A DNA stretch of 53,672 nt, counting the filler, from Jimgerdemannia flammicorona (taxonomy: Eukaryota), in the NCBI GenBank assembly GCA_003990765.1. It is 2 parts of 2 records of this genome, joined end to end, with 100 filler letters (N's around TTAATTAATTAA, not from the genome) between each part and the next. Parts side by side here need not be neighbours in the genome. Positions count along the whole stretch, not along the records: positions 1 to 26,798 come from RBNJ01000694.1; 1 more part is not named here. One strand, given 5' to 3'. How positions within the stretch are numbered: position 1 is the first letter of the stretch; each line of letters opens with the position of its first letter. Position numbers and translations under genes: made by a program. Below the pieces are notes generated by a model. That model had not been told where the DNA came from. It did not search any database and worked only from the letters and a program-made list of their open reading frames with translations. This document shows positions 3,101 to 43,249 of the stretch, piece after piece.

Positions 3101-4190
3101 CTTTAAGTTAATAATTCTTATTATTAATAACTTAAAGGCACTTATATCAGATATCTTTAGCTTGAGGAAGTAGCTATCTTAATGTCTAAGTACTGTCTAT
3201 TGTACTTCTAATTGATCTAGTCTCCTTCTGATAGACTTAGATAATAATTTATTAATTATAGACTTTAATTCTTTAAAGTCTAAGTCTTTTAGTATATTCT
3301 TTAGATATAGTCTGATTTTGAGAATTATATTTAGATTCTTCAAGGTTCAAGTATTTATAGAGTTCAGAACATCTAATTTTAGATATAGTTTTTTTATTGA
3401 GAATTATTCTGAGACTTATCTATATATTATAGACTAAAGTCTTAATTATTCTTTTATTTAATATTCTGTAAAATCTGAGAGTTCTTGAGTCATTTCTCTA
3501 GGGGTATTTATACATTTTGAAGATATCTTAATATTGACTAACTATTGGCTAAAAAATATAAGACAGAAGATCACTAAAAATAATATAAAAGTTATACTAT
3601 AATAGTATTAGTATAAAGTCATAATGATGCTCTTTAATGATATTATTTTTACATATGAACTATAAAGTAATTGTTCTAGATTTTGACTGAAACTTATGAT
3701 ATAGTATTTTATTATATCATATAGTAGCAATAGACTTCTGTATAAAGAGTTAAAGACTTCTTATTTACCTCTATACTAGATGAGAAATAGGTTAGCTCTT
3801 CTGAGCTAGCTTCTGATCTTATAGTTTCAGATGATGTAAAAGATCAGTCAGAGACTAGTCTGATTGGAAAGAACAGAGTAGCCAGATAGCCAGGTACTGA
3901 TAGGGATAGAGACTTATGTAATTAGTCCTTAAAAGAGATTAATAATAGAGTTAAATATCTTATTCTTATAAGGTCAAACATCATTATTATAGTAGTCTTG
4001 AAGGTTAAAATCATTTGTAAGATCTAACTCTACTTATGTAGTATGGATTTCATTAAAGCTACCAATTTTAGCAGGAGCTATCCTTTGTATATCACTAATG
4101 GCAAAGAATATTTCTCTGAACAATTAGTAGATATAGAGTAAAATATACTGTCTAAATAGAGATATTATATTTATTTAGTATTTCTGAAGT
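168..4190 (-). mobile_element. Element E: heavily mutated Ty3/gypsy LTR retrotransposon remnant (5' LTR, gag, dUTPase, CPHG module, protease)
   Basis: Minus strand gives dUTPase motifs (IPTKAY, GGGVIDKEY, ERETKGFGSS at ~690-1105), WYFQLKDEY..RYPHG (~520-622) and a decayed protease VLFNTEASRNFI (from DTGASGNFI, ~335-400); TATAAATACCCC on minus at ~3501-3512. Confidence 0.75.
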
Positions 4191-4984
4191 TGTAATAGAA
4201 TGAATGAATGAGTGAACAGATGGGATACAATAAGCAATCATGAATGATCATGTGACCTGGCGAGTGATGATGTCATCATATGAACAAAGTATAACATATG
4301 AATTATGAATGATGAATGATATGAAACAATGTGGAAAACAATATCCAGCTTATCCCCCACAATTGGTGCTGCAGCAACAGTTGCCACAGCTGCTGATTAT
4401 TGTCTAGTAATTAAGATCCTGATCACAAAGTTATTCTTTACCAAAAACCACCTGATAAAGGTCGCAATCACAAACCTCATTATAGTTACCAAATTAGTCA
4501 CTCATACTTAGTCAGAAATTATGGACCAACTTGTATAAATACCCCCCAGTTTCCATCCGAAATAAAGTAGTTTTAGTTCAGTCCTTAATACAAGAATCAA
4601 GTCCCCCCCCCCACACACACATTCCCCTAAGTCTTAGTAATGACATCTAAGTGACTCTAGTGTTTCTAACTAAACTCCAGAAGCCTAGCTAACTTCTGCC
4701 AGAACTGAGACTAGTATATAAATCCCCAAAGACTTAAGTAAACCCATTGAACCTGAATTCCAAGGCAAATTCAGTCTGTGTATAGCAAAGAACAAGATCC
4801 TCAAAATAGGGCATATGAGAAAGACCTTTGAAACAGAAGACACTACCACTATAACTACTTATAAGCAAGCACTTCCTCAAACTAAAGGCTTCTTGGTACA
4901 CATTGTGTACTAAGTTCCTAAGTAATAGTCCACTTCCCTAATTATCTAAAGGATAAGAGAGGGGTAGAAGTGAGAGTTATTACA
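4191..4984 (+). repeat. 5' LTR of element A
   Basis: TGTAATA start, TATTACA end, direct repeat of 12544-13355 and 23504-24307, internal TATAAATACCCC. Confidence 0.95.
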
Positions 4985-4987
4985 ACT

Positions 4988-4999
4988 TGGTAGCAGTGG
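4988..4999 (+). promoter_or_regulatory. Primer-binding site of element A (initiator tRNA-Met-like)
   Basis: TGGTAGCAGTGG 3 nt after the LTR; same sequence in element B; resembles the complement of a tRNAi-Met 3' end. Confidence 0.8.
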
Positions 5000-5085
5000 A
5001 TTACCAGCCAAGAAGGCACTAAAGAATACACTCCTGAAGTTGGAACAAGACTAACCTTGGACAGGAGTAACCCCCAGAATTAACT

Positions 5086-6900
5086 GTGGATCCTCAAACC
5101 AGAGCCAGGGAAGCCCTTGCCATTAGGACCAGGTGGTACCAAGAAACTACAGACACAGAGACCCACCAGCTTGTAATTGACCAGGCTTACAAGGATCTAT
5201 ACCAGGCCTTTAGGACATACCACCCAGGACTTAGGAACATTGTTAGCCACCATAGATTCTACAAACTCCTCTGAGGATATATTGGAATCACTAGGACCCC
5301 AGAATCTACTGCTGCAGCCACTCAGGATTTTTTAGATTATATCACACCCCCTGCTGCAAGAGAAGTAGCTGCCGAGTGGATTACCTCTCATCATATCCCT
5401 ACCAAGACCTCCCTCTACTACAGGCTAGTTGTATACTATGCCTCTGCCATAACCAGGTATGAGAACGAGCAAGCAGGCCAATCATCCCCTACTGCTGAAT
5501 AAGGAGCAGGCCCATCTACTCAGCCAGAGACTGACATCCTCTTTGAAGGACCTAGTTAGTATGAGGATGCACTATCTCATCAGAGAAGGGAGTCAGATGA
5601 AGACTCTATAGGTTACTAGTCTGACAATAGCCAACGAGGAACAGCAGGCCTAGGAATTTACCAAGGAACCATAGGTCAAGAAGAACAGACCCCAGAACCA
5701 ACCCAGCCACCTATACAGAGGTTTGGTTTACCCTCTCTCACAGGACTCTTTGACTTAATATCCAGGAATCAAGTAACCCCAAGTCATACAGCACTACAAC
5801 CCCATCAAGCAGAATAATCTTCAGAAGAATCTACCCCAACAGGCCCACCACCAATAGTCAATACAATGGTAGATACCAATATTACAGCACTGACTACCCA
5901 GCTAGCAGTACTAGCAGGGATAGTAGGACAGATTGCTGAATAGAACAAACCAACCAAGACCTTGCAAATTCCAACATTCAGTGGAAAAAACAGCAACATT
6001 GAAAACTTCATCAATGCAGTTGATACAGACTATCAAGCAAACCAATGGAATGATAACCAAGTACCTATAGGAATGCTCACCAATAACCAGAACAGTACCC
6101 TCCAACAGCTATTTGCCACATCAGCAGCACAAGTAGAAACAGTAGCCACATTCTTCACAGGAACAGCAGCTGAATTCTGGTGAATCTTGAAACAACACCC
6201 AGTAACCTGGGAAGCCCACCCCCAAGTCAATGGACAAGTACCTGCCAACAATAGACCAGGTTGGAATGACCATGAAGCAGGCCCAGGACTCAAGGCCTTG
6301 CTACTGACCAAATTCCGAAATGCAGCCTACATACAAGAAACATGGAACAAACTGTCTCAAAAGAAGTTCCATAAGAATGGTGAAGAAGATCTAGAGACCT
6401 TTGCTACCAGAATAGATGCCTACCTTAAAACTGTTGGACTTACCTATCAGGAAAACAATTTGGCCATCAATGGTACCAGAGCCAACCATCTGTTTGCAGT
6501 CTTACCAGACTGGCTCACCCAGAAGATCAAGGAACAAGGTCTTCCCCAAGGATATCCCCACTACTCATAGTGCTTTGCCTAAGTACAAAGAAGAGCACAC
6601 AAAATCCTCACTGCACAAACTCCACGAAATCAAGAACACAAGAAGGATAACCAAGATAGAAGAAATCCTACTAGGAAAAATGATCAAAGGAATGACCAAA
6701 GATATGATCAAAGGAATGATCAAAGGAACCAGTGAAATCCTAGAGGACCCAGACCTCCCACCAAGGATAAAAAGAAGCAGCTCCATGAAAAAAGATTGTG
6801 CTTTATCTGCAAGAAGGCAGGACACATCTCATTCAGATACCCTGAGAAGAAGAACAGAACAGGCGAACCCAGTAACCAGAACATTACTATTATTAGAGAA
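5086..6900 (+). pseudogene. gag: Gag of element A with a long N-terminal extension and zinc knuckle
   Basis: IPTFSG motif (5962+), capsid-like region homologous to element B Gag, decayed knuckle CFICKKAGHISFRY at ~6800-6840; stops and a frameshift. Confidence 0.8.
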
Positions 6901-6924
6901 GGTTCAGGAAAGAAAACCCCTGAG

Positions 6925-7343
6925 AATGTCATCAAAGTACAGAAGATATAATACAAGGCTACTATCCCCACTAAGGCCCACTCAACTGATGCTGGATATG
7001 ACCTCTACAGCAGTCAAGACCTCACTATTCCACCAAGTACCAATGCTACAGTGTGAACAGGGATTGCAATATAAGCTCCTAAAGGTACATACATCTGTCT
7101 TGCTGAGTGAAGCAGCCTAGCCAAAGAGTTCAACATTGGGCTAGGAGGAGGAGTAGTTGACCAAGGATTTACTGGTGAAATCCATGTCATCTTGCAAAAT
7201 TTTGGAGACATATCATTTGAAGTCAAAACAGGCCAAAGGATTGCCCAAGCAATCATTGAAGAAATCTGTCAAGATCTCACTATTGAAGAAGTCCCCGAAC
7301 TCTCCCAGACAGACTGTGGCAAGAAAGGGTTTGAATCTACCAA
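6925..7343 (+). pseudogene. dut: dUTPase domain of element A (between nucleocapsid and protease)
   Basis: Motifs AGYDL, (R)SSLA, GVVDQGFTGEI, GQRIAQ and CGKKGFEST (decayed RGxxGFGST). Confidence 0.9.
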
Positions 7344-7659
7344 CAAACCCCCTAGTCAAAAGGTCACTACCATGAAGGAAGATGATGAAAACTGGTACAA
7401 GAGAATTGCAGATAGTTATGCACTATGTAGAGGATGTCCTCATTCTATTTGAATGTACTGCATGGAACATATTGGTGAATGCCATGCATACCTCTCCAAA
7501 GTTTTCAAAATTCAATCTGAGAAGCATCAAGCCCAACAGACTGAGGAACCCAAACAAGACAACCCTCCTTGTGAAGGATGGAGAGAAACTGACTTTGAGG
7601 AGACTGACAGCAATTGGGACAACAATGAAGATGAAGAGCTCAATACCATCAAGAAGGAG

Positions 7660-10600
7660 GATAGTTGCATCAAGTTCACAGGTCAAGTCCACAGACAGAA
7701 TGTCAATGTCTTGCTTGATAGTGGTGCTACTAGAAACTACATTAGCACCAAGACTGCCAAGAGGATTGGAGCCTGAAGCAGACCAACTATTGAGAAAAGA
7801 AGTGTTACCTTTGGTGATGGAAAAACTGCACCATTGACCAAGATCTGTGAAGATCTTTTGCTCAAGATTGGCAAATATCAAGAGAAGTTTGACTTCAGTA
7901 TTGTAGACCTCCCAGGACAAGATATTATCTTAGGAAAAGCCTGGTTGACCCAGTACAACCCAGACATCAACTGGAGAACCAATGAGGTTAACCTGATCCA
8001 CAAAGGCAGAAAGATCACCCTGACACCCCAGGAAGGTACCAACCACCAAGGAATCAAAATCATCTCTACCATTCAAATGAAGAGACTCTCTCAAAAAGGG
8101 AAACACCTACTTCATCTGTATAGTACAAGAAGTCACTGAAGCTACAAGTAGCCCAATCCCAATAGAAGCTCAAGAACTGTTCAAAGAATTCCAAGATATA
8201 TTCCAAGACCCCCAAGGACTTCCACTCAAGTACCAAATCCAACATGGAATTGACCTTATTCCAGGATCTGAACCCCCATACAAGAGTATCTACCAACTGG
8301 CCCAATCTGAGCTCAAGACCCTCAAGGATGAATTGACCAAACTACTGGCCCAAGAATACATTGAACCCAGCTGCTCTCTATTTGGAACCCCCATTCTATT
8401 TGTCAAGAAGAAGGATGGCTCTCTGCGAATGTGTATTGACTATAGAGCCCTCAACAAGATCACTATCAAGAACCAGTATGCCTTGCCCAGAATTGATGAG
8501 TTGCTATACCAAATCTTCAAGGCCAAGACCTTTTCTCTACTGGATTTGTGAAATGGCTACCACCAGATTCTCATTGATGAGAAGGACATTGAGAAGACAG
8601 CTTTCTGAACATGGTTTGGACACTACTAGTTCCGAGTCATGCCTTTTGGATTGACCAATGCACCAGCAACATTCCAGTATCTGATGAATGACATCTTTGG
8701 ACCACTCCTCAACATCAGTGTCCTTGTGTATATTGATGATATACTAATCTACAGCGAGACAGTAGAGCTACACTACACCCATCTCAGACAAGTACTGACC
8801 CTCCTGTGAGAATACCAGCTCTATACCAAGATGAGCAAATGCAAGTTCTACCAAGACCAGATTGAATATCTAGGACACATCATCTCTGCTGAAGGTATCA
8901 ATGTGGACCCCTGAAAGGTATCAGCCCTTAAGAATATCCCTATCCCTACTACACTCAAGCTACTCCAGCACTTTCTAGATATTACCAGTTATTACCGAAG
9001 ATTTATTCAAGGATACTCTGCTATTGCAGCTCTATTAATCATTCTGGCCCGCAAAGGAGTAAACATCAAAGCTGAATAGACCCCCGAATGCACTCTGGCT
9101 ATGGACCATCTCAAGAGACTCCTTACCAAGGCCTCAGTGCTAATTGTACCTGACCCTACCAGACCATTCACTCTGACCACAGATGCCTCTGACATTGCTA
9201 TTGGAGCAGTACTCAGTCAAGAAGACCACCCAGTGGCCTACCTTTCCCAAAAGCTCAAGCCAGCTGAGACCCAGTATACCACTTATGAGAAGGAACTCCT
9301 GGCTATTGTCACTGCACTCCAGGAATGGCACCATTTCCTCCTAGGACAGCCATTTGTAGCCTACACTGATCACTATGCACTGCGGTATATTCACACACAG
9401 CCTATGCTGACCCACAGACAAGCCCGCTGGATGGAAATAATTGCCAACTTTGATATGGAAATCAAGTATATCCCAGGCAAAACCAACTGTATGGCTGATG
9501 GTTTCTCCAGGTATATGGAAGATGAACTTGTCATCATGGTCGAAGTAATTGGTGACCTTACCCAAATGATCAAGGATGGCTATCAGCAAGACAGCCCTCT
9601 GATGAATTTCCTTCAATTCTGCTAAGACCCAGAGGCCAAGATTTCAGAACCCATGAGGCAAATGGCCAAGAGATTCACCTACTGTGATGGACTTATCTAC
9701 AGGGACTATGACAGAGTGGTTGTACCCAACAATAATACTCTACGACTCAAGATCATGCAGGAACTCCATGATACTCCTGCAGCAGGACACTTTGGTTTCA
9801 AAAAGACCTACAACCTCCTCTCAAGAGAGTCCTATTGGCTAAAGATGACCAAGGATATCAAAGACTTTGTGGTCTTATGTGAGATGTATCAAAGGTTCAA
9901 AAGTGGTAACAAGCTACCAGCAGGACTCCTGCAACCTTTGCCTATCCTGAGTCACAATTGGGACCAGATTGCAATGAACTTCATTGTCCAACTCCCCAAG
10001 ACCAAGGCAGGATGGGATGCCATCATGGTATTTGTGGACCGCCTAAGTAAACAAGCCCATTTTGTACCCACCAAGACCACTGCTATAGCACCAGAGATTG
10101 CAGAGATTTTCCTCAATCAAGTATTCAGGCTACATGGCATACCTAGCACCCTTGTATCTGACTGAGATGCTAAGTTCACAAGCAACTTCTAGAAGGCATT
10201 TTTCTCCCTCTATGGAATCAAGCTAAAGTTCTCTACTGCCTACCACCCTCAGACTGACAGTCAAACTGAGCGAACCAACAGGACTCTCAAACAGATGCTT
10301 AGTATCTTCTGCTGTTACAAGCAAAATGATTGGGACAAGTACCTAGCCCATGCTGAGTTTGCCTACAACAACAGTTAGCAAACCTCTACAAAGAAGACTC
10401 CATTCTTCCTGAACCATGGTCAACACCCAAGGACCCCAAGTACTACTGTGAAATCAGCAGTCCCAGCAGTCCAAGATCTGGCCGAGACCATTTCTGACCT
10501 TACACCAATGACAAGAGATGCTCTCATAGAAGTACAAGACTACCAGACCAAGTACGTGAACTTGCAGTGAAGAGAAACCTTCTACAATATTGGTGATATG

Positions 10601-11056
10601 GTCATGCTTAGAACAGACCACCTCCACCCAGACACCCTGGCATAACAACCAGCCAAGAAACTCTGTGCTAGAAGAATTAGACCATACAAGATCATAGAAA
10701 AAATCAGTGAAGTCAACTACAAGTTGCAACTGCCTCATAATATCCGAGTACACCCAGTATTCCATATCAGTCAATTGATGGACTACCATGAGAACTCATT
10801 TCCTGAGCATACAGTTCCACCACCACCCCCAATTAGGATCAATGATTATGAGGAATTCGAAATTGAGGAAGTACTTGACCACAAGGTCTGCAAATATCCC
10901 AAAACAGTCAAGCACTTTTTCCTGATCAAGTGGAAGGGTTACCCCACCCATGATGCCATCTGGAAAAAAGAAGAAGCCCTGAAGAATGCATGTGAAGTCC
11001 TCCAGGACTACATGGAAACACTCACCCTCCAGCAAAGGAAGGAACTACAGCTCTAA
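7660..11056 (+). pseudogene. pol: Pol of element A: aspartic protease, RT, RNase H, integrase, chromodomain
   Basis: LLDSGA protease; [16 protein letters not shown] and YIDDILI RT; TDASDIAIGAVL RNase H; HDTPAAGHFG integrase; EFEIEEVLDH..FLIKWKGYPTHDAIW chromodomain. Confidence 0.95.
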
Positions 11057-11704
11057 GCATAGGAGCACATAGCGAGCAGATAGATACTACATATTTTTAT
11101 TTGGAAACATATAAATACCAAACATTGCAAAAAAAAGAAACACTATGGATAACCAACAAGAAGATACCTGAGCAAAAGAACAATCTAGTACAGTATAGTA
11201 AAATGCATTTGAACAACTCCATTTCACGCCATCTGTATCATCTCCACTGGATGATGACAGATGCTTCATGTGAAACTTAGGAAAGCCGACAATGTCGAAA
11301 CCAGTCTAAGTCCATCTATGTGATAGATATTATTACTAGGAATTGCCTCAGATTACAAGAAAGTCTATTTCTGAGAGGTTCGAAACCCCAGCCATGACAA
11401 TGGGAGCCCTCGCCCTAGACAAGGATGGCCAGTCCTTGCAAATGTGCCAACCAGACAAAAAAAAAATTGGACCAAGACCTGTTAACCCTGTGTAACTACA
11501 ATTATAAGTGATGATATCTTTGAAATCAGGATTTTCTCATATGACTAACACATGCCCTGCTTACAGCAACAGGTCATGCCTTTTGCCAGAAAGTGTGATC
11601 AAAGGAAGGTCATATCAGACAGGTGAATAAGTATAAATACCCAAGGCAAGAATACCCTGCAACTCTTATCTCCTCTCTCCTCACAAAGAAAAGACAAGAC
11701 AAGA

Positions 11705-12532
11705 ATGCCTGCTACCTGCCACCAAACTGCCCACCATAGCCAGCCCCTCCTAAGCCAGGTTAACCGCCTCTTTGGACACATCTAGGTTGCTATTCAAGGA
11801 AGGAACTGCTGCTCAGAGGCCCTTAACCTCTCTAGCCAGGGCCTAGGACACTATGTCCTCAACCACTGTGAAGTCATCGAAAGAGCCTACCTTGCCATCA
11901 GCCGTCTAGAGATTTGGCACGAATATGAGATTGGCCATCAACTCCTCCAATGGGCAAAGGACCTGCCCATGGACTAAGTCTCTGACTGGACTCACCTAGA
12001 TAGGCATGAGCAAAGACTTGCCAAGAAGGTCCACCAAATTATATGCCATGTACCCTTTGCAATCCCCAACCTCAACTATGTCCAACTGAAGGACTTCCAG
12101 AACCTCTCCTTCTTCGAGGTTGATGAACTAGAGATCAAGGTAGCCCAAGAAGTCAACTCCTGGATCACTCTCAAGTCTACTGACTGCAAACCCTACTGGA
12201 GCCCCCTCCTGAATGACAATCCTGACCAATGGCTCCAAGGCCTCTCTGACCTCTTCGAAGAACCACCTATCCGAATGGATATTCCCAGGCATAAAGATCA
12301 AGAGCCCTACTTGGATGGCCCCAACTGCATCAGATGGAGAACCCCTACACCAGCACCTATCCCAATGCAAGAACCATTTGCAGACCTCATTGACTTCTCT
12401 ATCCTGGACAGTGAGCCACCAGTAACTACCCCCCCTGCCCCTGAAGAAGATAGTAACAACCCTGAGGAGGATTCCCCACCTTTCTCTCCCCTGGTTCTCA
12501 ATTTCTCAATTAATGAGGACGTTGATTTCTAA
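11705..12532 (+). pseudogene. Accessory ORF of unknown function in element A (~275 codons), between pol and PPT
   Basis: ATG 11705 is in frame with TAA 12532; two internal stops read CAG in the copy at 22667; TATAAATACCC at ~11632; homologous to the LTR ORF of family C. Confidence 0.8.
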
Positions 12533-12543
12533 GGGAGGAAGGA
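12531..12543 (+). promoter_or_regulatory. Polypurine tract of element A
   Basis: AAGGGAGGAAGGA directly before the 3' LTR, overlapping the accessory ORF stop codon. Confidence 0.9.
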
Positions 12544-13355
12544 TGTAATAGAATGAACGAATGAGCGAATAGATGGGATATGATGAGATGAACAATCATG
12601 TGACCCGGCGATGACATCATCATATGAATGAAGCATGACATATGAATTACAAATGACGAATGATGTGAAACAATGTGGAAAATGATATCCAGCTTATCCC
12701 CAACAATCAGTACCACAGCAATAGTTGCCATAGCAGCTGATCATTGCCTAGTAATTGAGGTTCTGATCACAAAGTTATTTTTACCAAAAACTACCTGACA
12801 AAGGTCATAATCACAAACCTCATTATAGTTACCAAATTAGTTACTCATACTTAGTCAGAAATCGCAGACCAACTTGTATAAATACCCCCCAGTTTCCATC
12901 CGAAATAAAGCAGTTTTAGTTCAGTCCTTGATACAAGAATCAAGTCCCCCCACACACACACATTCCCCTGAGTCTTAGTAATGACATCTAAGTAACTCTA
13001 GTGTTTCTGACTAAACTCCAGAAGCCTAGCTAACTTCTGCCAGAACTGAGACCAGTATATAAATTCCCAAAGACTTAAGTAAATCCATTGAACCTGAATT
13101 CCAAGGTGAATTCAGTCTGTGCACAGCAAGGAATAAGACCCTTGAAATAGGGCACAAGAGAAAGACCTTTAAAACAGAAGGCAAACCAGAAAAAGACCTT
13201 TGAAAGATAAGGCACTGCCACTACAACTACTTTAAGCAAGCACTTCCTCAAACTGAAGGCTTCTTGGTATACATTGTGTACTAAGTCCCTAAGTAATAGT
13301 CCACTTCCCTAATTATCCAAAGGATAAGAGATGGATAGAAGTGAGAGTTATTACA
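12544..13355 (+). repeat. 3' LTR of element A
   Basis: TGTAATA...TATTACA, homologous to 4191-4984. Confidence 0.95.
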
Positions 13356-16300
13356 TAGAGTCTACTTTGATTCCATTTGAAGTGATAATGTGTCCAAGAA
13401 ATTGAATTTCTTTCAGGAGAAATTCGCACTTACTGAGTTTTGCAAAGAGTTGGTTTTCTCAGAGTTTCAGTAGCACTAGTTCAAGGTGTTCAAGATGTTC
13501 CTCTAGGGTTTTGCTGAAGACTAGGATGTCGTCAATGTCGACAACAATAAATTTGTCCAGGTATGGATGCAAGATAGTATTCATCAGGGTCTGGAAGGTT
13601 GTAGGAGCATTAGTTAGGCCAAAGGGCATAACCAGGAACTTGAAGTGTCTATAGCAAGTTCGGAAAGCTGTCTTGTAGATGTCTTCTTCTTTCATAGCAA
13701 TTTGCCAGTAACCATTTCGCAGATCAAAAGAGCTCATAAATTGCAGGTTAGTGAGCCTATCAAATATTTCATTGATCCTTGGTAGTGAGCAACAGTTCTT
13801 GATAGTCTGTTTATTGAGATCATGGTAGTCAATGCACATTTGCAGGTCTCCTCCTTTCTTGACAACAAATAGGACTGGTGCACCATAAGGTGATATGCTG
13901 GGTCTGATGAATCCTTGTTCTAGGAGTTCATCAATTTCTTTCTTGAGTGTATTGATTTCTCTCGGAGACATGTGGTGGATTGACTTGAAGAGTTTGGCAT
14001 CTGGGATAGTCTTGATGGTATGGTCTACTGCTTGTTTAGGAGGTAGGCCCTTTGGGAGCTTCTTTGGGAATATTTCTCAAAATTTCTAGAGTAGTAGTCT
14101 GATATGGCTGTCAACTTTAGAAAAGTCTTCTTTAGAGTTCTCAGGTTCTCCTTTGGATGGACAGATGGAGATGACAAAGAGAGGGCATTTCTTGGCCAAT
14201 TTCTTAAGTTGTAGCTTGTTGATGTAGGTGATCTTTAGTCCAGGGTTACTAGAATTAAGTGGGTCCTTTTTGCCTTACAGTTTGAAGTTGTGGCATCCTT
14301 TCTTGATGGTCAGAGAATGGTTTACCCAATCAATCATAGGGTTCTCTTGTTTTAACTATAAAGTCCCAAGGATGATTTCATTGTCAGGAAGTAGTATGAT
14401 TTGGTAAATAACATATACTCAGTAGTCACCAATTCAGAAGAGTAGGTTGTGGACTTCCTTGCTAATAACATGTGAGGTTCCATCAGCTGTGGTGACTGCT
14501 TGGGTTTGTTGTACCAGAGAGGTAAAGACCTTAAGTCTGTTGGCTGTTTCTTCATTGATGAAGTTGCCTGAGGCACCACTGTCTATCATAATCTTGACAG
14601 ATGCTTGGTTGACAAAAGCCTTAAGTGTGAGCAGTTTGTCTGATCTAATAGTGGTAATTTCAGTTATAGGGGCTTTTCTTCTGTTGGTTCTTCTTTGTGC
14701 TAGTTCATTGATACAAGAGAAGCAATCATCAATTATTTGGGAAGAGTACATTCCAATGCCATAAGAGCATCAGCCACTTGGTATATATCTGTCTTCAATC
14801 TTTTTGTAGAATTTTTCTTCTTTATTCATGGTAAATTGGGCTAGAGTCTTGTTCGATGAGCCAAATCCTTTGGATCCTTGGATGGTAGGTAGTAGTTCAG
14901 GGACTTCCTTGACTGTCAGAGTTGACTTGATTTTTTCGAATAGGATCTGGGCAATACAAAAACCTATAGGGATCTTGAAGGGTGTCCAACTATGGTTTCA
15001 GATGAGGACAATAATTTTGCCTGTATAATTCTCATCAATGACTCCTTCTTCTACTGAGAGTCCTTTCAATACTAGGCTGCTGCGACAGCATATTCTTCCA
15101 ACATGTCCTTCAGGGATTTGGATACTGATTCCCATATAGACTTGTTTGACTTCTTGGTTGGAAACTGTAGCTTCTTCAGCTGCATACAGGTCATATCCAG
15201 CTGTTTTTTGACTTTCTTTAGTTGGGGCTTTAGCAGTTTGTCTTAACTTGACAAAGTCTAGTGTTCTGGTGGTCAGGTTGTTGAGGTGATGCAGAGTGGT
15301 AACAGTTGCTCAGATTGCTGTTTGGGGTTTTTAGTTAGGGCAGGCACTGGCCATATATCCTGTCTTTCAGCAATAGAAGTATACTCCACTTCTTCAAAGT
15401 TCATTTCTTTCACTTTCAGTGAGTTTCTTGAAGGTACTCAGTTGGGTGGGTTCATGATTTCTGGGTGTCCAAGAGGTGGATGTGGAGGGAGCTTAGGATG
15501 CTTCATGCTTGTGTTCTTCTTTCTTGGTCCAAGTCCTTTCCTTGTTGTTGAATTGTCTTCAGGGCAGAATTGGTCCAGCTGTTAGGATTCACTTGACCAT
15601 AGTCTTAATTCTTGCCAGGCACCATTGTTGGTGATCACAACCAACTGGGCAGCCTTGTTCTCAGATTTTTCTAGTAAGCCATTCAGGCAGTGCATCAAAT
15701 AAATGATCTGCTCTTGTACCATTTCGTGCTTTATCATTGGCAATATATCCTAGGCCAACAGTATTTAGGAGTGACTCGAGTTTTGTACAGAAGGTTTCGA
15801 ATTCTTCTTTACCATGTATATCAAATTTAAGGTTGTGGAGTTTTACTTGAGATTCAGCAATCATGGTTTTGCTGCAGTATTGAGCAATCATAAGTTGTTT
15901 GAGTCCAGGGGCTGCAGGATGGGCTCTATATCCTGGGGCATTGTTTGCTGTATTCTGAGCAACTACTGCAGGTCGGGTATCCCATATGAGGGATTTTTTA
16001 GGAATGGTTCACCACCATTCTTCGGCGGGTCCTCAGAAGAATGTAACAACTTGGTGGACATAGGCTATAGTGATAGCAAAGAGTTGTTCCAGAGTGTGGT
16101 CTTGATTATTTGTCAGAATGCGGTCAGCAACTCACTTATTGGCCCATTGATTGGCTTCGGAGTTGGTGTCAACTACACTAATAAAGCTTTAGACTTCTTG
16201 TATAGTACCATTGAAGGTGGATAGGCTCAGATTTTTGGTAGGTCAGTTCTGTTCAGCTAAGGTAGTAATGGTTGCTGCCATTATTGCTACCTGACCTGTG

Positions 16301-17287
16301 AGGTCTAGAATCTGTTGGTTTGCCATATTGTTTACTGGAGGCAGTTGGACTGCTGATAGTAGTATTACTGGTACTACTTGAGGTACTGGTGTAGAGTATG
16401 AGGGTGTTCTTTGAGTCTGTGAAAGTTGCTGGAGTAGTAGTTGTGGATCTGGAGTAAGGGCTTGATAGATAACTGTTTGTTGCTGTGTAGGTGTATTCTG
16501 TCCTGAGGGAGGTACTTCTCCTTTGGTGGTATATCTGGGATCGAATTCACTGAGATACTCCTCCTCCTCTTCAGTTTGGTCCCCGTGTAATTAGGTTTGC
16601 TCAGTATTGAAGTAGATGGAATCAGTTGTATATCTGATTTCAGATGGACTTAATTCAAAGTCAAGTTCAGGTTCAGTATTGGTTTCAGATTCAAGTAGGG
16701 CATAGCAGGGCCTGCTTCAGGTTCAGGGTCAGATAGTTGATGAAGGGTTTCTCATGCTTCTTCTTTAAGGATATGGTGGGCCTTGCTGTTCTGGAATTAG
16801 TAGTATAATGCAGTCTTAGTCCTGGTGCAGTGAAAGTCAGTAGAGTTGAGCCACTTGGCTACAGAGACTTGGGCTTTGTGAGGGACTAAGGCTAGAAAGA
16901 CTGCTGCTGGTTGTCCTAGGTTGCTCAGATTTGTGGAGCTAACAAAACTCTTGTTGAGAAGAGTAAAGAAGGCTTCAATAAGACCTTCTTCATCTTGACT
17001 TGCTGGGTATAGTGCAAGGAGTTTCGTGAATAAGGTTTCACCTATTTGCTGATTTAACTGGAGTATATCTTTCTTCAAATACAGTTTGTCCCACTTATTG
17101 CAGATGTAGAGGTCAAATTGTCCTTGTACATCAGATTCAATTCTCTCCAGATTGTCAGATGGTTCAGAATAAATTCCAGTTCAGAGGTTGGGCTTGATAC
17201 CAACTTATAGGAATTCTCAGAAGGGTTTGTAGTGGGGTAAGGAAGTATCTTGAAGTGGAATTGGATTGTAAACCACTGCTACCAAGT

Positions 17288-19350
17288 TGTAAGAGGGTTG
17301 CTTTTTTAGGGTAACTGTTATGTAGTTCTGGAAGGGTTTTCTGGAAGTTCTGGATGTTCTGGAAGACCATTTTCTTATGGTTAAGATCAATTTCATATGG
17401 AGTATGTCCTCTATGCTTATTGATTTCAAGATCGGGTTGATGTCTCAACCAAAGTCCTTTTTTGGACTAGTTCTGAATGTTCAGGATTTCTGTATTTCAG
17501 AAAGTTTAAGAAACTAAGACCAGCTTAGTTGAATCAGCATATTGCTGCAGACAATACCCAATTAGGAAATTTCGTAACAGGGTTAGGAGTGGGATCTAAC
17601 AGAGAGCAGATTTACTTAAGAGTAGTTTGTGGGTTATTAAATAGGTTTATTCACTATTCATGATATTGCTATACTAGGAGTAGTTGAGTAAAGGAATATT
17701 GTGGGGAAGTGTTCAGAAATATTCTTGTGTATTCAAGTCTTTCAAGTCTGAGATTCTGAGGTCTGGGGGAAGGGGTATTTATACTAGTGAGGGGCTATCT
17801 GGGCTATACTGAATATGAATATAGCACTAAGTGCCTTGCTGAGTCAGAATGCAGTCACATAGTATAAGTGTGATCTGACATGTCAAGAGATTGTCTGACT
17901 GCTGAGTCAGTTTACACTTATATCATATAAGGCTAATCTAACTATACTATGACTGCTAGGCTAGTTATAGGTTTAGGTACTGTCTGGGTAGTCCTTGATG
18001 ATATCACTATCGATTGCATCATCTCTGATAAAGTAGTCATCTAGGAAGAGTGGTTCACGGATTACTTCTCCTTGTTTGCTAAGGTAATAATATATTGAAA
18101 CTTCATCTCTGTTCCACAATATGGCATCATCAGTCTCATATGCTGGGTAAGGTATTGGTGAGCGAAGGAGGGGTGTATTATCTTTGCTTTCATTGGGTTC
18201 ACTATCTGCATACCTTCTATAGGTTACAGCACTATGAGTCATAGAGTTGTAGTAAGCTGGCGGCTGTGGTTCATATCACTTGTACTCAGGTGGTGGAGTG
18301 GTTGGTTCAATCTTGAGGGTTGTCTGGAGGTACAGGTTATGTTCTCCAGTCTCTTTATTGTAGTTGAAGTAATCAGGAGTGAACGCGGGTTGGTATTTAT
18401 ACTAGTGGTCATTGTTCTAATAAGTCTTGTATGTGGTTATGAACTGTTGTAAGTTCATCAGTAAGGTTGATGGTATAATTAGTGTTGGTAGAGATCCTTG
18501 GCTTGGGGTCATGTCAGTATCAGAGGGATCATTGTCTTCTGCTTCATCTTCATCAAACTGGATTATATTATAAATGTCCTTCATAGCATATCCGACTTGG
18601 GGCATTTGCAGGATGTGGTCATTGGGGTGTGGAAAGGTTCTGTCTATAGTTTCAATATACTCGAGATACTTGTGGTTGATTTCTTGTATCATATCATCGA
18701 TTTGGCCATAGGACAGGGTAGCAACCATTTCGCTGGTAGTAACTCAGAGTTGGAGAATAAAGGTGCTATACTCATAGAAGAGTTCTTGGTGTTTGTAGGC
18801 AATGAGCTTCTGGTGTTGAGATATCTGAGTAATGTCTGTATCATGATGATGTTTAACCATATCTTCCAGGAGGTGGCTGATCTGGTAGTAGCTTGAGATT
18901 TGTCCAATCTAGTGGGCCTCATTAAGCATGTTTAGGGCATTTTATCAGGCTTCTATGAAGTAGAGGGATGCTAGGCTATGGATATTCATGAGGGGCAGAG
19001 GGGGTGTGGCTCAGTTGACAATAGCATTCCAAATGTCAGTGCAGATATGGGTGTAGATCTTGGTAGTCATGTTTGTATATTAGAAGTTTTATTTGTTTTG
19101 GTTCTCTATTTTGACACATCTCGGTGCTTAGTATATATGTATTTGGTCCTGATTGGTAAGATTCCACTTATGTGAATCTTATGTTCTGTGACTTCATATT
19201 GACTCAGCTTTGTGTGCTGTGACTTTGGTTTGACTCAGCTTCATGATCAAGCAGGTGATTTCCAGATTTGTTTAGAGGTCGCATGTGATTTCAGTGGCTT
19301 ATTCAGAAGGTGATGTGTGATTTCAGTAGCTTGGAGGTTGTGCACTTATA
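17288..19350 (-). repeat. Putative long (~2 kb) 5' LTR of element B containing an accessory ORF
   Basis: TGTAAG at 17288 and CTTATA (mutated CTTACA) at 19350 as inverted termini; TATAAATACCCC on minus ~17772-17783; no second copy in the window to confirm. Confidence 0.5.
17973..19070 (-). pseudogene. Accessory ORF of element B (~366 codons), distant homolog of the A and C accessory ORFs
   Basis: ATG 19070 and ORF pieces 18417-18728 and 17973-18242 share one frame; YYQISHLL...HQKLIAYKHQELF...ILQL...LSYGQIDDM aligns with A; TATA-like at ~19130. Confidence 0.65.
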
Positions 19351-19667: not shown

Positions 19668-20160
19668 ATGACTGATAAATTTCAAAATTACCTTCACTAT
19701 TTATCTCTGCAAGTTTATCTTGAAGACTTATCCGAGCACTTTAAGGAAATGAACAAGACCATTAGCAAAGTTTTCAAATGGCTAAATGATGACAATGATA
19801 ATAAGACTGATGAAAACTATAAGAAAAATAAGAAGAAAATAGAGAAAGCACTTGAGAGATTTATCTCAGCCAGCCATGCCCTTACTGACCCTCAAGTCTA
19901 AGCCTCTACTGGCCCTCAAGCCCAAGCCCCTGCTGGCCCTCAAGCCCAAGCCCCAGCTGGCCCTCAAGCCCCAGCCCCAGCCCCAGCCCCTCAAGCCCTA
20001 GCCCCAGCCCCTCAAGCCCTGGGCCCTCAAGCCTGGCCCCTCAAGCCCCAGCCCCTCAAGCCCCAGTCTCTTAAGCCCTGGTCCCTCAAGCTCCAGCCCC
20101 GAAGCCAAGAAGAGGATGATGTATTACAAGTTGCCATAATTGCAGAATATATGGTAAAAC
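19668..20160 (+). pseudogene. Degenerate ORF with a charged helical N-terminus and a PQA/PA-rich tandem repeat; possible transposon cargo
   Basis: ORF 19668-19901 continues past one TAA into GPQAQAPA repeats (CCCTCAAGCCC units 19889-20100). Confidence 0.35.
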
Positions 20161-20544: not shown

Positions 20545-20727
20545 GATGACATAAGATTTGAATCAAACTCTCAATTTGATTTGATTGAATCAAATCAGAC
20601 CCCCAATTCGATTTGACTTTGATTCAATTCAACTTTGATTCGAATCAAAAAATCCTCAATTTGATTTGACTCCAATCAACCCCAATTCGATTCGATTCGA
20701 ATTGATTCAATTCATTTGAGAGCACTA
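20545..20727. mobile_element. Right terminus of a hAT-like DNA transposon (ATTCG subterminal repeats, TIR ...GAGAGCACTA)
   Basis: Reverse complement matches the TAGTGCTC... terminus at 43506; abuts integrase sequence of an A-family copy. Confidence 0.7.
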
Positions 20728-23700: not shown

Positions 23701-24307
23701 CACAGTAACTGATTATTGTCTAGTAATTGAGGTTCTGATTATAAAGTTATTTTTGCCAAAAACCATCTAACAAAGATTGCAATCACAAACCTCATTATAG
23801 TTACTAAATTTAGTCACTCATACTTAGTTAGAAATTGTGGACCAACTTGTATAAATATCCCCCAGTTTCTATCTAAAATAAAGTAGTTTTAGTTTAGTTC
23901 TTGATACAAGAATTAAGTCTCCTCCATATATACATATTCTCCTGAGTCTTAGTAATAACACCTAAGTGACTCTAGTGTTTCTGACTAAACTTCAGAAGTC
24001 TAGCTAACTTCTGCCAGAACTGAGACCAGTATATAAATCTCCAAAGACTTAAGTAAACTCAATTAAATCTGAATTTCAAGGTAAATTCAGTCTGTATATA
24101 TGTAGTAAAGAACAAGACTCTTGAAAGATAGAGTAAACCAGAAAGACCTTTGAAAGATAAGACACTGCCACTATAACTACTTTTAAGTGAGCACTTCCTC
24201 AAACTGAAGGCTTCTTGGTATACATTATATACTAAGTCTCTAAGTAATAGTCTTACTTCCCTAAGTATTCAACGGATCAGAGAGGGGTAGAAGTAAGAGT
24301 TATTACA
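20728..24307 (+). mobile_element. A-family copy 2: integrase, chromodomain, accessory ORF (22667-23492), PPT and 3' LTR (23504-24307)
   Basis: Colinear with 9765-13355; more heavily C>T/G>A mutated. Confidence 0.93.
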
Positions 24308-26502: not shown

Positions 26503-26539
<37 letters not shown>

Positions 26540-33514: not shown

Positions 33515-34332
33515 ATGTCTGCTCACTAAACCTCAAGGTCCAGGAACTACTAAGATTCCTCAGTCTAGGAAAGGATGTTCCAAGACATTAGAAGAGCCAT
33601 GAAAACTCACATAAGAAGGACTCCTAGCCTCAACCTGGGTACTAGTAACTCTTATCATTATATCCTCTACTACTATGAAATGGAAACAAGGATCACTATT
33701 ACTACCAAATATCTCTGTATATGGTAGGAATATAAAGAAACCTCCTCTGCCAGGAATTCTCTCAGACCAGTCTCCAAGAAATATAAGATACTACTTTTAT
33801 AGATATATATGAAATAAGGATAGCTAAGAAGATTCATTATGTCTTCAGGCATATACTATAGTTGATCTCCAACTTGGAGTGTACTAGAGTCTCAGACTTT
33901 AAGAAATAGTCAGCTCACCATACTAATGCACTGGAGGCCATGGTGGCCACAGAAGCCCAGTCCACTATTACTCTCAATAGTAATGAAATAGAAGAGTTCT
34001 GGGATCTCATCCTCTAGGATAATTCAGATCAATTTCTACAAGGATTGATCTCAGCATTCCAAGGCCCCAGCATCCAGGTTAGACCTCTCCAAGACCCCAT
34101 ATTTGTTTCTTATTTTGTAGAAGAGAATGTCATAGATTAGGGAGACCCTATCACTGCTGAATAAGATGATATCACCCACAATAATGTTATTAATGATGAT
34201 GTCATTCTGTATAATATATGCAAAATATATGAAATGGATGAAATATTCATAGATCTCATTTTCTTAGAGAATATTCTGACCTCTGACAGTGATGAAGATA
34301 AAGCCTCCATGATTCTGAACATTTTGCTCTAA
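33515..34332 (+). pseudogene. Accessory ORF copy inside the LTR of element D
   Basis: Homologous to 34778-35569, more degraded. Confidence 0.75.
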
Positions 34333-34535: not shown

Positions 34536-36046
34536 TGTAATGGTGACCCCAGAATAATGACATTAGTACAGGAGACAGCCTTTTCTTGCAAGCCATCAGA
34601 TTGGAGCACAAGAAGATCATATGGCATATGAAATGAGCAATGATGACCAACTGTGAGTCATTGTGACCACAGTATAAGCATCCTGAAGAATATAAAAGAA
34701 GGATCAAGAAACCACAGTAGCAGTAACCAATAAGAACCACCAATTCCAAAATAGCTCAAAGACTTATCACAAACAAAATGCCTGCTGCCCACCAAACCTC
34801 AAGGTTAAGGAATCACCAAGGTATCTCAGTTGAGGAAAGGATGTTCCAAGATATCAGAAGAGTCATGAGGACCCACTCAAGAAGGACTCCCAGTGTCAAC
34901 CTAGGTACTGCAGACCCTTATCACTATATTCTCTACTGCCATAAAATAGAAACTAGGATCACCATTGCTACCAAATGCCTCTAAATGTGGCAGGAGTATG
35001 AAATAGGAAACCTCCTTTGCCAGGAGTTTCCACAAGCCAGTACTCAAGAGCTACAAGATGCTATCTCTATGGATATATGTGAAACAAAGATAGCTAAGAA
35101 GATCTATCAGATCTTCAGACATACACTATAGTTGATCTCCAACTTGGAGTATGTTAGAGTCTCAGATTTCAGGAATCTGTCATCCTGCCATATCAATGCA
35201 CTAGAAGCCAGGGTGGCTACAGAAGCCCAGTCTACTATCACCCTCAATAGTGATGAAGTAGAAGACTTCTGACACCCCATTCTTCAGGACAATCTAGACC
35301 AATTCCTGCAAGAATTGATCTCAGTATTCTAAGGCCCAAGCATCTGGGTTAGATCTCCCCAAGACTCCACATTTATCCCTTATTTTGTGGAAGAGAACCT
35401 CATAGATTAGAGAGCCCCTGATTTCTCCACTGAATGTGATGATGTCATTGGTGATGATGTCATCCTGTGCAACATCAAGGTATATGAAAATGATGAATTC
35501 ACAGATCTCATCTCCTTCAGTGATGATGATGATGATGAAGCCTCCATAATTCTAAACTTTCTGCTCTAAGTTCTTTGTTATACTGAATAATACCAGTACT
35601 GGTATTTTGATGTAACACTGGATAATGCCAGCATCAGTATTTTGATATAACACCAGATAATACCAGCACTGGTATTCTGATGTGATACTGAATTATACCA
35701 GCATCCTGAACCTGTACAACCATCAGTGCCAACCCTGAAACTTAGTAGTTTTAGTTATTGGAATTTATATTTAGCTTTATATCTTAATAACTATTGAATT
35801 ATATTTTGTATAAATACCCCTCTTATTTCCTCTGAAATAAAGTCAGTTCTGGTTTCACTTACATACACTTTCTTGCAAGCAATCTAAGAGATAACAAGAT
35901 AGTTAAAGATAAGAAGTTTGAGGACTATAAGACCTTGAGAAGGTACTCCAATAAGAACTTGCTTATAATAAACTTGAGTTAGTCTAAGAGATACATCTTG
36001 AAGAGAATCTGACATATTTGAAGGACTCAGCGACCACTATATGACA
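34536..36046 (+). repeat. 5' LTR of element C (1511 bp)
   Basis: TGTAATGG...ATGACA; direct repeat of 41741-43249; includes a 35-bp tandem array (~35580-35705) and TATAAATACCCC at ~35809. Confidence 0.93.
34778..35569 (+). pseudogene. LTR (U3)-encoded accessory ORF of element C, 264 codons
   Basis: 792-nt ATG-to-TAA frame with no indels; internal stops are sense codons in another copy or are TAG/TGA pairs from TGG. Confidence 0.85.
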
Positions 36047-36099
36047 ACTTGGTGCCCATTGGCTGGTGATTCAAGACAAATCCCTCACTTTCAAGCTAA

Positions 36100-41390: not shown

Positions 41391-41740
41391 GATGACCGCC
41401 CATGAGGTTCTAGTCCATGAATTATAATAGCATGTCCCATGACCAGTAGACTATCTGTCTGGACCATTCTCTAAGGGATACAGCACTGGCAACTACTCAT
41501 CCATGAGACTTTCGAAGTCAGAGGAGTTCGAACTGTCAACTGATTGGTCAAGATCAGAATCAGGCCCTTGCTCTATATGAAGGGAGCAATCCTTCACCAT
41601 TATACCAAAATACAAAGAGAAGACACCAGCCCATAAACACTACTTTTTGACTCTTTGCCAGAGGTTATGAGATCAGCAAATTTTTCAGAACTGGACTAAT
41701 GAATAAGGATACTTGAGAAGATCCTTATTCAGGAGAAAGA

Positions 41741-43249
41741 TATAATGGTGACTCCAGAATGATGACATCAGTATAAAAGATAGCCTTTCCTTGTAAGCCA
41801 CTAAATTGGAGCACAAGAAGATCATATGGTATATGAAATGAGCAATGATGACCAACTGTAAGTCATTGTGACCACAGTATAAGCATCCTGAAGAATATAA
41901 AGAAGGATCAAGGAACTGCAGTAGCAGCAACCAACAAGAACCACCAATCCCAAAATAGCTCAAAGACTTACTACAAACAAAATGCCTGCTGCTTGCCAAA
42001 CCTCAAGATCAAGAAATCATCAAGATATCTCAGTTGAGAAAAGGATGTTCTAAGACATCAGAAGAGCCATAAGGACCCACTCAAGAAGGACTCCCAGTAT
42101 CAACCTGGGTACTGCAGACCCTTATCACTATATCCTCTACTACTGTGAAATGGAAACCAGAATCACTATTGCTACTGAATGCCTCCAAATATGGCAGGAG
42201 TATGAAATAAGAAACCTCCTCTGCCAGGAGTTCCCACAAGCCAGCACTCAAGAGCTACAAGATGCCATCCCCATAGATATATGTGAAACAAGGACAGCTA
42301 AGAAGATCCATCAGATCTTTAGGCATGCACTATGATTGATCCCCAACTTGGAGTATATTAGAGTCTCAGATTTCAGGGACCTGTCATCCTGCCATATCAA
42401 TACACTAGAAGCCAGAGTGGCTACAGGAGCCCAGTCTACTATCACCCTCAACAGTGATGAAGTAGAAGACTTCTGGCATCTCATCCTTCAGGACAACCCA
42501 GACTAATTCCTGCAAAAATTGATCTCAGTATTCTAAGGCCCAAGTATCTGAGTTAGATCTCCCCAAGACCTCACATTTGTCTCTTATTTTGTAGAAGAGA
42601 ACCTCATAGATTGGAGAGCCCCTGATTTCCCCACCAAATATGATGACATCATTGGCAATGACATCATCCTATATAATATTGAGGCATGCGAAAATGACAA
42701 ATTCGCAGATCTCATTTCCTTTAGTAATGATGATGATGATAAAGCCCCCATGATTCTGAACTTTCTGCTCTAAGTTCTTGTTATACTGAATAATGCCAGC
42801 ACTGATATTTTGATATAACACTAGATAATACCAGTACTAGTATTTTGATGTAATACCGAATAATGCTAGCACTGGTATTCTGATATGACACTGAATTATA
42901 CCAGCATCCTGAACCTGTACAACCATCAGTGCTGACCCTGGAACTTAGTAGTTTTAGTTATTGGAATTTATATTTAGCTTTATATCTTAGCAATCATTGA
43001 ATTATATTTTGTATAAATACCCCTCTTATTTCCTCTGAAATAAAGTCAGTTCTGGTTTCACTTATACATACTTCCTTATAAGCAATCTAAGAGATAACAA
43101 GACAGTTAAAGATAAGAAGTTTGAGGACTATAAGACCTTGGGAAGGCACTCCAATAAGAACTTGCTTATAACAAACTTGAGTTAGTCTAAGAGATACACC
43201 TTGAAGAGAATCTGGCATATTTGAAGGACTCAGCAACCACTATGTGACA
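41741..43249 (+). repeat. 3' LTR of element C (1509 bp), with accessory ORF copy 41982-42773
   Basis: Follows the PPT; starts TATAATGG (mutated TGTAATGG), ends TGTGACA. Confidence 0.93.

Follow-up and report, generated by a model that had tools for sequence, protein, structure and literature searches.

Ty3/gypsy retrotransposons of Jimgerdemannia flammicorona that carry a dUTPase share an orphan, non-env accessory gene

Introduction

To our knowledge, most extra genes of long terminal repeat (LTR) retrotransposons are either antisense or resemble env, and a role is known for almost none of them. The present work concerns one such gene in Jimgerdemannia flammicorona, an accessory open reading frame (ORF) carried by several Ty3/gypsy elements within a stretch of 53,672 nucleotides from assembly GCA_003990765.1 (hereafter the window, along the whole of which all positions are counted). 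The first copy considered, ORF-A, occupies 11705..12532 on the + strand in element A; elements B and C carry ORF-B and ORF-C. The accessory family is real and moderately novel, being an orphan without env features whose members are LTR-borne or internal depending on the place of the polypurine tract (PPT).

Retroviral genes that lie in or overlap the U3 region of the LTR include sag of mouse mammary tumour virus (MMTV) and lentiviral nef, and Sag is a type II membrane protein. The accessory gene resembles them where its coding sequence lies in U3, is duplicated with the LTR and stands at the 3' end of the genomic RNA; however, its protein has no hydrophobic segment, its carrier is a retrotransposon and its host is a fungus-like soil eukaryote, and no similarity to any solved structure was seen in PDB profile, Foldseek and VIA-align searches with a moderate-quality model. 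The foamy-virus transactivator Tas is expressed from an internal promoter. The accessory product may resemble Tas in combining a helical domain with an acidic tail reminiscent of an activation domain, and its gene in having a putative promoter of its own, but there is no homology between the two and both transactivation and promoter activity are only putative here. Some Tor elements of Oikopleura have a 3' gene with such an internal-promoter arrangement, as far as the account in PMC4402516 extends; the likeness covers the 3' gene, the putative own promoter and an mRNA 3'-co-terminal with the genomic RNA, which is here a proposal, whereas the Tor gene codes for an env glycoprotein and the accessory ORF is non-env.

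Among retrotransposons, sense additional ORFs between pol and the 3' LTR (aORF-3S) are a known kind in the survey sections of PMC7264820. ORF-A, the copy in A' (a partial second copy of element A) and the metagenomic copy L001 match that kind as sense ORFs after pol, found in all family copies, with ORF-A and L001 placed between pol and the 3' LTR; ORF-B and ORF-C do not, because they lie inside the LTR, and the family also differs in not being env-like and in having no transmembrane (TM) segment. PMC2864245 depicts fungal chromoviruses with an additional ORF of "unknown function", which might be of the same family. In bdelloid rotifers, non-env ORF3s are common to diverse retroelement lineages and modular gene sharing has been proposed, as summarized in PMC5408684; the same extra ORF type likewise spans LTR-retrotransposon lineages there, several of them with a dUTPase, but the rotifer ORF3s described are a GDSL esterase, a DEDDy exonuclease or env-like, whereas the accessory ORF is an orphan without enzymatic signature. 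The gene brtn of Boty-like elements in Botrytis cinerea (PMC8365987) is, by its description in that source, to which the comparison is confined, another extra gene of a fungal gypsy element, although it is antisense and the accessory ORF is sense. The literature search gave no account of the accessory family, nor of any retrotransposon whose LTR contains a protein gene; the supplements of PMC2864245 on fungal element structures may bear on priority.

The Accessory Family in the Window

The accessory ORF recurs in six of the six copies in the window, namely those of A, A', B, the older C copy (C1) and the 5' and 3' LTRs of the younger one (C2), and beyond it in L001 and many metagenome contigs. 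The window copies are as follows.

11705..12532, + strand: ORF-A, ATG at 11705 and TAA at 12530-12532, 275 codons
22667..23489, + strand: copy in A', frameshifted, with 5 stops in its last 186 codons
34778..35569, + strand: ORF-C in the C2 5' LTR, inside U3, 263 codons with 5 stops, a TATAAAAG box 87 nt upstream
41982..42773, + strand: ORF-C in the C2 3' LTR, inside U3, 263 codons with 5 stops
33572..34323, + strand: ORF-C in the C1 3' LTR, frameshifted, with 7 stops in its last 206 codons
17973..19070, - strand: ORF-B, 365 codons with 8 stops, upstream of gag in the B 5' LTR

All of these copies are dead, wrecked by transitions. ORF-A, which follows the integrase chromodomain at the end of pol and precedes the PPT of A, is interrupted twice in frame, by TAG at codon 27 and by TAA at codon 91.

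When the window was searched by tblastn, ORF-A matched the C2 3' LTR copy with 36% identity over 214 aa (41982-42623, E 2e-35), the C2 5' LTR copy with 36% over 214-216 aa (34778-35419, E 3e-29), the C1 copy (33572-34080, E 1e-19) and the A' copy with 73% identity over 181 aa (22667-23489), and no unrelated match was better than E 7. Window self-comparison revealed no nucleotide-level similarity between A and C, so their similarity is at the protein level. The homology of the A and C ORFs, asserted in a sequence-only reading that preceded this analysis, is therefore borne out. The motifs quoted there are present too, but some of the C strings merge both C2 copies, which differ at the quoted motif (the 5' one has ISNLEYVRVSDFRNLS, the 3' one IPNLEYIRVSDFRDLS); P0009, an intact relative from a metagenome, has WHPILQDNPDQFLQ, exactly the string that had been reconstructed.

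ORF-B had been presented as a more distant version of the same gene, and this holds for its N-terminal domain. Pairwise comparisons are weak: BLASTP against ORF-A gives E 0.017, there is no BLASTP match to ORF-C, and hhalign against the family gives a probability of 7% and E 0.0047, which is not significant. The kinship is accepted because of a hidden Markov model (HMM) scan and its shuffle control. With an HMM built from seven relatives, all from outside the window, and 540 six-frame pieces of the window, ORF-B is the best piece that is neither A nor C (14.7 bits, E 5e-4, HMM positions 7-138), while the next unrelated piece reaches 2.3 bits; none of 1000 shuffled versions attains its 15.2 bits (maximum 5.2), and the reversed sequence scores -1.4. 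The ungapped match previously noted for B lies inside this 129-residue collinear alignment. The related part comprises residues 7-135, whereas the C-terminal 250 residues are a different sequence with an intact relative of their own, P0016. ORF-B is therefore a distant relative of the N-terminal helical domain of the family.

Relatives Outside the Window

A profile search of 1.84 billion representatives at a threshold of E <= 1e-3 yielded eight matches, all from metagenome assemblies, and seven of them look genuine; the eighth was rejected as an ankyrin-like repeat artefact. Four relatives are strong (P0008, P0009, P0010 and P0011, E 3.6e-37 to 2.6e-109), P0012 follows with E 4e-14, and P0014 and P0015 are borderline at E 9e-4, the latter being confirmed by hhalign (probability 92%, E 6e-7). 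No cellular homologue was found among the 1.84 billion representatives. Stop-free frames occur in L001 (291 aa), P0009 (247 aa), P0010 (342 aa, on a 4.8-kb contig), P0015 (286 aa) and P0012 (200 aa), and these intact relatives of 200-342 aa were found only in soil metagenomes. A word-indexed search gave one match each for A and B. Viral contigs gave 0 relatives among 86 pattern matches, prokaryote genome contigs gave none, and no fused form was seen among 1734 candidate longer proteins, which is weak evidence.

The metagenome scan returned a single locus, L001, a JGI soil contig of 1535 bp with an intact A-type ORF of 291 codons. It has a TATAAAAG box 80 nt upstream of the ATG, a stop codon that overlaps the PPT AAGGAGGGAGGA, and the LTR start TGTAATAAG directly after, that is, the architecture of A (TATA, ORF, PPT, LTR start) in an unmutated copy. 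Since seven in-frame stops lie upstream of its ATG, the ORF is not an extension of pol. Many further copies of the accessory ORF are present in metagenome contigs from four soil or "organism A" runs, and the codon-91 stop of ORF-A is private to the window copy, a sense codon being found in the other copies in three of the three runs that cover the site. Joints in the metagenome contigs aligned to the ORF region are few, each in a single low-depth contig.

Protein Features and Coding Constraint

The proteins of the family measure 250-340 residues. They begin with a short basic N-terminus, continue through a helical core of ~130 residues and a small beta-hairpin, and end in a tail that is disordered and strongly acidic. 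The N-terminus is arginine-rich in P0009 (RRAMRTRSRRT), and acidic residues (D+E) outnumber basic ones (K+R) by 19:2 in the last 70 residues of P0017 and by 21:4 in P0009. Two short hydrophobic motifs, F-x-DLI-x-FS and P-x-[IV]LNF, are conserved in the tail. Neither a TM segment nor a signal peptide was found: the highest 19-residue Kyte-Doolittle mean is 0.55-1.08 across nine of nine proteins, all with hydrophilic N-termini. The earlier assertion that the protein is not env-like therefore holds.

An AlphaFold 2 model computed from a 12-row alignment has a mean predicted local distance difference test (pLDDT) score of 60 and a predicted template modelling (pTM) score of 0.47. It places helices over residues 21-152 and a small hairpin, with 10-residue block means of pLDDT 71-94 over residues 81-160, and the tail at 221-291, with pLDDT below 50, is predicted to be disordered. 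No known family could be assigned: Pfam gave 0 families for five proteins at E <= 10, PHROGs nothing below E 0.09, and PDB sequences searched by profile nothing at E <= 1. The best ESM Atlas score was 0.82, within the noise range, and with the moderate-quality model the best values were E 0.6 for Foldseek against the PDB, Z 4.4 for VIA-align against 48,161 chains and E 0.07 for BFVD, none of which rises above noise.

The mutation pattern of the window governs how constraint can be read. The C2 LTR pair differs by 158 transitions and 0 transversions, with 101 of the 158 in CpA context, and the A LTR pair by 69 transitions against 5 transversions, with 52 of the 69 in CpA context; CpG observed/expected is 0.05-0.13. 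This decay looks like repeat-induced point mutation on top of strong CpG depletion, so that the label "methylation-type" used before is too simple for a CpA-biased, nearly transition-only pattern.

The ratio of nonsynonymous to synonymous rates (dN/dS), which had been put forward as a check, is 0.20 for A versus L001 by a naive NG86 estimate, and wrong-frame controls give about 1. However, the C2 5' and 3' LTR copies compared in the same frame, a neutral control, give 0.30, which is low because the decay is transition-only and context-biased; the value of 0.20 is therefore not relied on, and transversion-only counts took its place. Between A and L001, transversions at codon positions 1/2/3 number 39/32/54 (p 0.048), and their rate is 0.23 at 4-fold sites versus 0.12 at second positions (p 0.041). 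Between L001 and C the counts are 79/47/87 (p 0.0018) and the rates 0.375 and 0.185 (p 0.019). The coding constraint is thus significant and real but modest, as expected of a fast-evolving accessory protein. A stronger argument for constraint comes from the frames of 200-342 codons that have remained open in relatives with only 20-65% of their residues in common.

Promoters and Layout Around the ORF

The features that surround the ORF in elements A and C2 are listed below.

11632..11643, + strand: TATA box of ORF-A, within GTATAAATACCC, beginning 73 nt ahead of the ATG, its 12-mer identical to that of the LTR core promoter
12531..12543, + strand: PPT of A (AAGGGAGGAAGGA), overlapping the ORF-A stop codon and abutting the LTR start TGTAAT
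35582..35705, + strand: tandem repeat of 3.5 units of 35 bp, separating ORF-C from the LTR core promoter
35809..35841, + strand: C2 LTR core promoter TATAAATACCCC, with GAAATAAAG 25 nt later, spaced as in the A LTR

A TATAWA or TATATA box stands 67-87 nt upstream of the ATG in six of six copies (A, A', both C2 copies, B and L001), at 72 nt in A', in line with the TATA-like box that had been placed about 60-90 nt upstream; the chance of such a box in a 41-nt window of this DNA is 0.086. The identity of the ORF-A 12-mer with the LTR promoter 12-mer looks as if the internal promoter had been copied from the LTR promoter. The LTRs of A (about 12875), B (17783, - strand) and C (35808) each contain the core promoter GTATAAATACCCC downstream of the ORF, which ends 190-340 nt upstream of it in all three, and the LTR start TGTAAT is also common to A, B and C. 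The pair formed by TATAAATACCCC and GAAATAAAG at 25 nt is shared by the LTR cores of A and C and is not found in B. Tandem repeats of 29/51 bp lie upstream of ORF-B.

The elements differ only in the side of the ORF on which the LTR boundary falls. The PPT and LTR start precede the ORF in B and C, whereas in A and L001 they follow directly downstream of its stop, which leaves the gene internal. ORF-C lies inside an LTR bounded by TG..CA ends, PPT, primer-binding site (PBS) and a 4-bp target-site duplication. Coding sequence embedded in U3, as in sag and nef, is accordingly found in C, where it is upstream of the LTR TATA box, and in B, where it is upstream of the core promoter and PBS; since it is within U3, the gene is duplicated in these elements, two per element. 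The change of position is a relocation of the PPT around a fixed unit of gene and promoter.

Exchange or Common Descent

That the family is a real non-env one, common to distinct dUTPase-bearing Ty3/gypsy families, agrees with the earlier claim, given the homology and hydropathy results. The further claim that it was swapped between clades fares less evenly. The comparisons that bear on it, including those for reverse transcriptase (RT) and protease (PR), are these.

RT identity: A-B 55%, A-C 37%, B-C 37%
PR identity: A-B 32%, A-C 20%, B-C 25%
Domain order: dUTPase-PR-RT in A and B, PR-dUTPase-RT in C
PBS: the same in A and B (ACTTGGTAGCAGTGG), different in C (TGGTGCCCATTGG)
Accessory ORF: A-B barely detectable, A-C 36% (E 2e-35), B-C not detectable

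By RT, PR, domain order and PBS, element A pairs with B, whereas by the ORF and the promoter/R motif (TATAAATACCCC followed by GAAATAAAG at 25 nt, absent from B) it pairs with C, and the A-C identity of the ORF (36%) is close to that of RT (37-39%) and above that of integrase (IN, 26%) and RNase H (23%). These discordant groupings would be expected if a 3' module, formed by the ORF and the adjoining U3/R, had moved between gypsy lineages by template switching of co-packaged RNAs, so that A would be a C-like 3' end on a B-like gag-pol; we regard such an exchange as possible but somewhat doubtful. Only three lineages come with their pol context, too few for a tree test, and no nucleotide similarity between A and C marks a recent transfer. 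Moreover, faster divergence or partial replacement of the B gene, whose C-terminus has its own relative P0016, gives the same pattern, and the order of ORF and promoter and the TGTAAT start fit common descent. ORF, core promoter and R follow in the same order in all three elements. The data are therefore accounted for about equally well by vertical descent in which the LTR boundary moved and the B gene diverged fast.

Possible Functions of the Accessory Gene

We consider it fairly likely that the ORF is a genuine third gene of dUTPase-carrying Ty3/gypsy elements, with a putative TATA promoter of its own and a soluble, probably nuclear product that may regulate the element itself. Transcription would start from the TATA box that precedes the ATG by 67-87 nt and give an mRNA of ~1.1-1.3 kb that finishes at the LTR poly(A) signal, sharing its 3' end with the genomic RNA. 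Separate transcription is suggested by the TATA spacing, the stops upstream of the intact copy and the place of the gene in U3 of the 5' LTR: in B and C, the 5' copy is upstream of the genomic start site and so could be expressed only from its own promoter, which the conserved TATA spacing fits. The product may be a soluble, probably nuclear regulator of the expression of its own element, as a basic N-terminus, a helical domain and an acidic tail studded with hydrophobic residues give it the look of a transcriptional activator. Among the roles conceivable for the gene, that of an element-encoded regulator seems the most likely, although in itself it is tentative; the tandem repeats in U3 would be candidate targets for it.

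Several observations weigh against this reading. In DNA as rich in AT as this, strings resembling a TATA box turn up often (2.3 per kb), and the ten runs listed are all soil-metagenome DNA contigs and none is RNA, so that promoter and transcript are deduced. The window holds a single B LTR, whose outer boundary cannot be fixed. The structure model is mediocre (pLDDT 60, pTM 0.47), a second, C-type model reaches pLDDT 52, and no search returned a DNA-binding or activation domain, so that the regulator role would follow from layout and composition only. Finally, the naive dN/dS of 0.20 is untrustworthy next to the neutral 0.30, and the transversion-only constraint is modest, with a ratio of about 0.5.

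The main alternative to a regulator is a particle-associated or replication factor, for instance a chaperone, a cofactor of nuclear import or integration, or an adaptor for RNA export like Rev, made either from a spliced subgenomic RNA or from the genomic one instead of from a promoter of its own. The basic, arginine-rich N-terminus would suit such a factor, the short hydrophobic motifs of the tail could be docking or export signals, and a pyrimidine-rich ...CTTACAG occurs upstream of ORF-A at 11558-11569; in addition, barley Bagy2 is mentioned in PMC7264820 as having spliced third-ORF mRNAs, within what that account details. However, the place in U3 means that the 5' copy in B and C cannot be on genomic RNA, the TATA spacing is conserved while a spliced form has no supporting splice evidence, and the structure searches gave no capsid, chaperone or export-factor fold, all of which makes this alternative rather unlikely.

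A bolder form of the preferred reading, the self-regulating third gene, takes the carriers for "complex" LTR retrotransposons, in which a dedicated promoter would drive a transactivator-like nuclear regulator acting on both the tandem repeats and the core promoter of the element's own LTR, even solo LTRs would be self-contained genes in families with the gene in U3, and the module would have been passed between lineages by recombination. The carrier elements do look like simple counterparts of "complex" retroviruses, but taken as a whole this scenario is unlikely.

A counter-silencing factor that blunts repeat-directed mutation, methylation or RNA silencing is improbable. A defence-evasion gene would be advantageous under heavy repeat-directed mutation, but nothing in sequence, fold or context points to it and every window copy has been mutated to death, so that the counter-silencing or chromatin role once guessed at finds no support there. 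It is very improbable that the region is not a gene but cis-acting U3 DNA or a transduced fragment of a host gene, for although it overlaps U3 in B and C, the usual place of enhancers, the A-C similarity is at the protein level (E 2e-35) with none at the nucleotide level, long frames are intact in five diverged relatives, third positions and 4-fold sites show an excess of transversions, all six window copies rather than one have the ORF, and no cellular homologue appeared among the 1.84 billion representatives.

Carrier Elements and Host Flanks

The map of elements is based on self-comparison of the window, Pfam scans of stop-masked translations and reading of the junctions.

4191-4984 and 12544-13355, + strand: LTRs of element A, which has gag, dUTPase, PR, RT, RNase H, IN and chromodomain
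4191..4984, + strand: A 5' LTR, 85.7% identical to the A 3' LTR, with the PBS ACTTGGTAGCAGTGG next
4985..11060, + strand: coding part of A, gag to chromodomain in the order just given, by Pfam matches
12544..13355, + strand: A 3' LTR, beginning TGTAAT, with GTATAAATACCCC about 12875 and AATAAA at 12904, closing ..CA
20728-24307, + strand: A', about 81% identical to A
About 20.7 kb down to 13356, - strand: element B, cut off within RT where the A 3' LTR abuts
17267..17795, - strand: B LTR parts, with GTATAAATACCCC at 17783, AATAAA at 17651, the end ..CA about 17288 and the PBS ACTTGGTAGCAGTGG at 17287
34536-43249, + strand: element C2, with TG..CA ends, 1.5-kb LTRs 89% identical, gag (CCHC), PR, dUTPase, RT, RNase H and IN
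34536..36046, + strand: C2 5' LTR, beginning TGTAATGG and closing ..CA, with the PBS TGGTGCCCATTGG next
41731..43249, + strand: C2 3' LTR, with the PPT AGGAGAAAGA directly before
33262-34535 plus 43250-43490, + strand: LTR of C1, split by the C2 insertion

Element A is a chromovirus: behind SH3_Tf2-1 and rve it has a PF00385 match (E 2.6e-8, 34.1 bits, cut-off 25.1). In element B the domains run dUTPase, PR, RT, and the PBS is that of A. In C2, no PF00385 match was found at E <= 0.01 in the three + strand frames, and since the copy is decayed this absence is weak evidence. The 4-bp target-site duplication ATAA surrounds C2 (34532-34535 and 43250-43253), which inserted into the 3' LTR of C1, exactly within its TATA box TATAAATA; because the remainder of the C1 LTR (R-U5) resumes past C2, a 240-bp tandem duplication seems to be present at 43013-43494.

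All four gypsy elements in the window carry a dUTPase: A at 6900-7300, B at 14300-15250 (- strand), C2 at 38250-38680 and the left-hand element at 770-1110 (- strand). It precedes PR in A and B but stands between PR and RT in C, which echoes the varying dUTPase positions indicated, in the material drawn from PMC2864245, for fungal gypsy elements including those of Postia placenta. The left-hand element, at 1-4190 on the - strand, is very heavily mutated (GC 26-30%) and retains dUTPase and PR remnants; its presence means that the left flank of A is not a continuation of B. Within it, the stretch at about 3950-4135 (- strand) gave a weak HMM match (E 4.6) and was not accepted as a copy of the accessory family.

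The remaining sequence holds further repeats and host-type genes. The integrase region of C1 contains an insertion of ~1.6 kb (30712-32312) with 680-bp terminal inverted repeats that are 90% identical and with internal inverted repeats, which looks like a foldback element or a miniature inverted-repeat transposable element. Between A' and C1, at 26503-29100, are a T(37) run, an N block and GC-rich (54-55%), proline-rich frames, and no Pfam match was found in this GC-rich stretch. The same satellite-like repeat, with units like GAATCGAATTGAGGATTTTTGGATT, occurs at 20560-20730, on the 5' side of B, and at 43500-43560, on the 3' side of C1. A G/C-rich minisatellite of 15/24-bp units of the GGGGCTTGAGGGGCT type extends over 19874-20106, upstream of the B tandem repeats and inside or just outside the B 5' LTR. 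The right flank has a GH18 chitinase (48086-49416, - strand), split over two frames probably by an intron, and the N-terminal region of an alpha/beta-hydrolase lipase (about 50598-51629, + strand); these ordinary host-type genes fit a fungal host, though they are no proof of one.

Meaning for Ty3/gypsy Elements

One orphan non-env gene has been kept across families whose RT sequences are only 37-55% identical, and it stands beside or inside the promoter region of the LTR, an arrangement otherwise tied to complex retroviruses. The layouts of A and C provide a clean natural example of how a mere shift of the polypurine tract can take a gene from "internal" to "LTR" status or back. If the protein does regulate transcription of its own element, gene regulation encoded by the element would not be confined to retroviruses, and LTRs, solo LTRs included, could hold protein-coding capacity that is masked by genome annotation.

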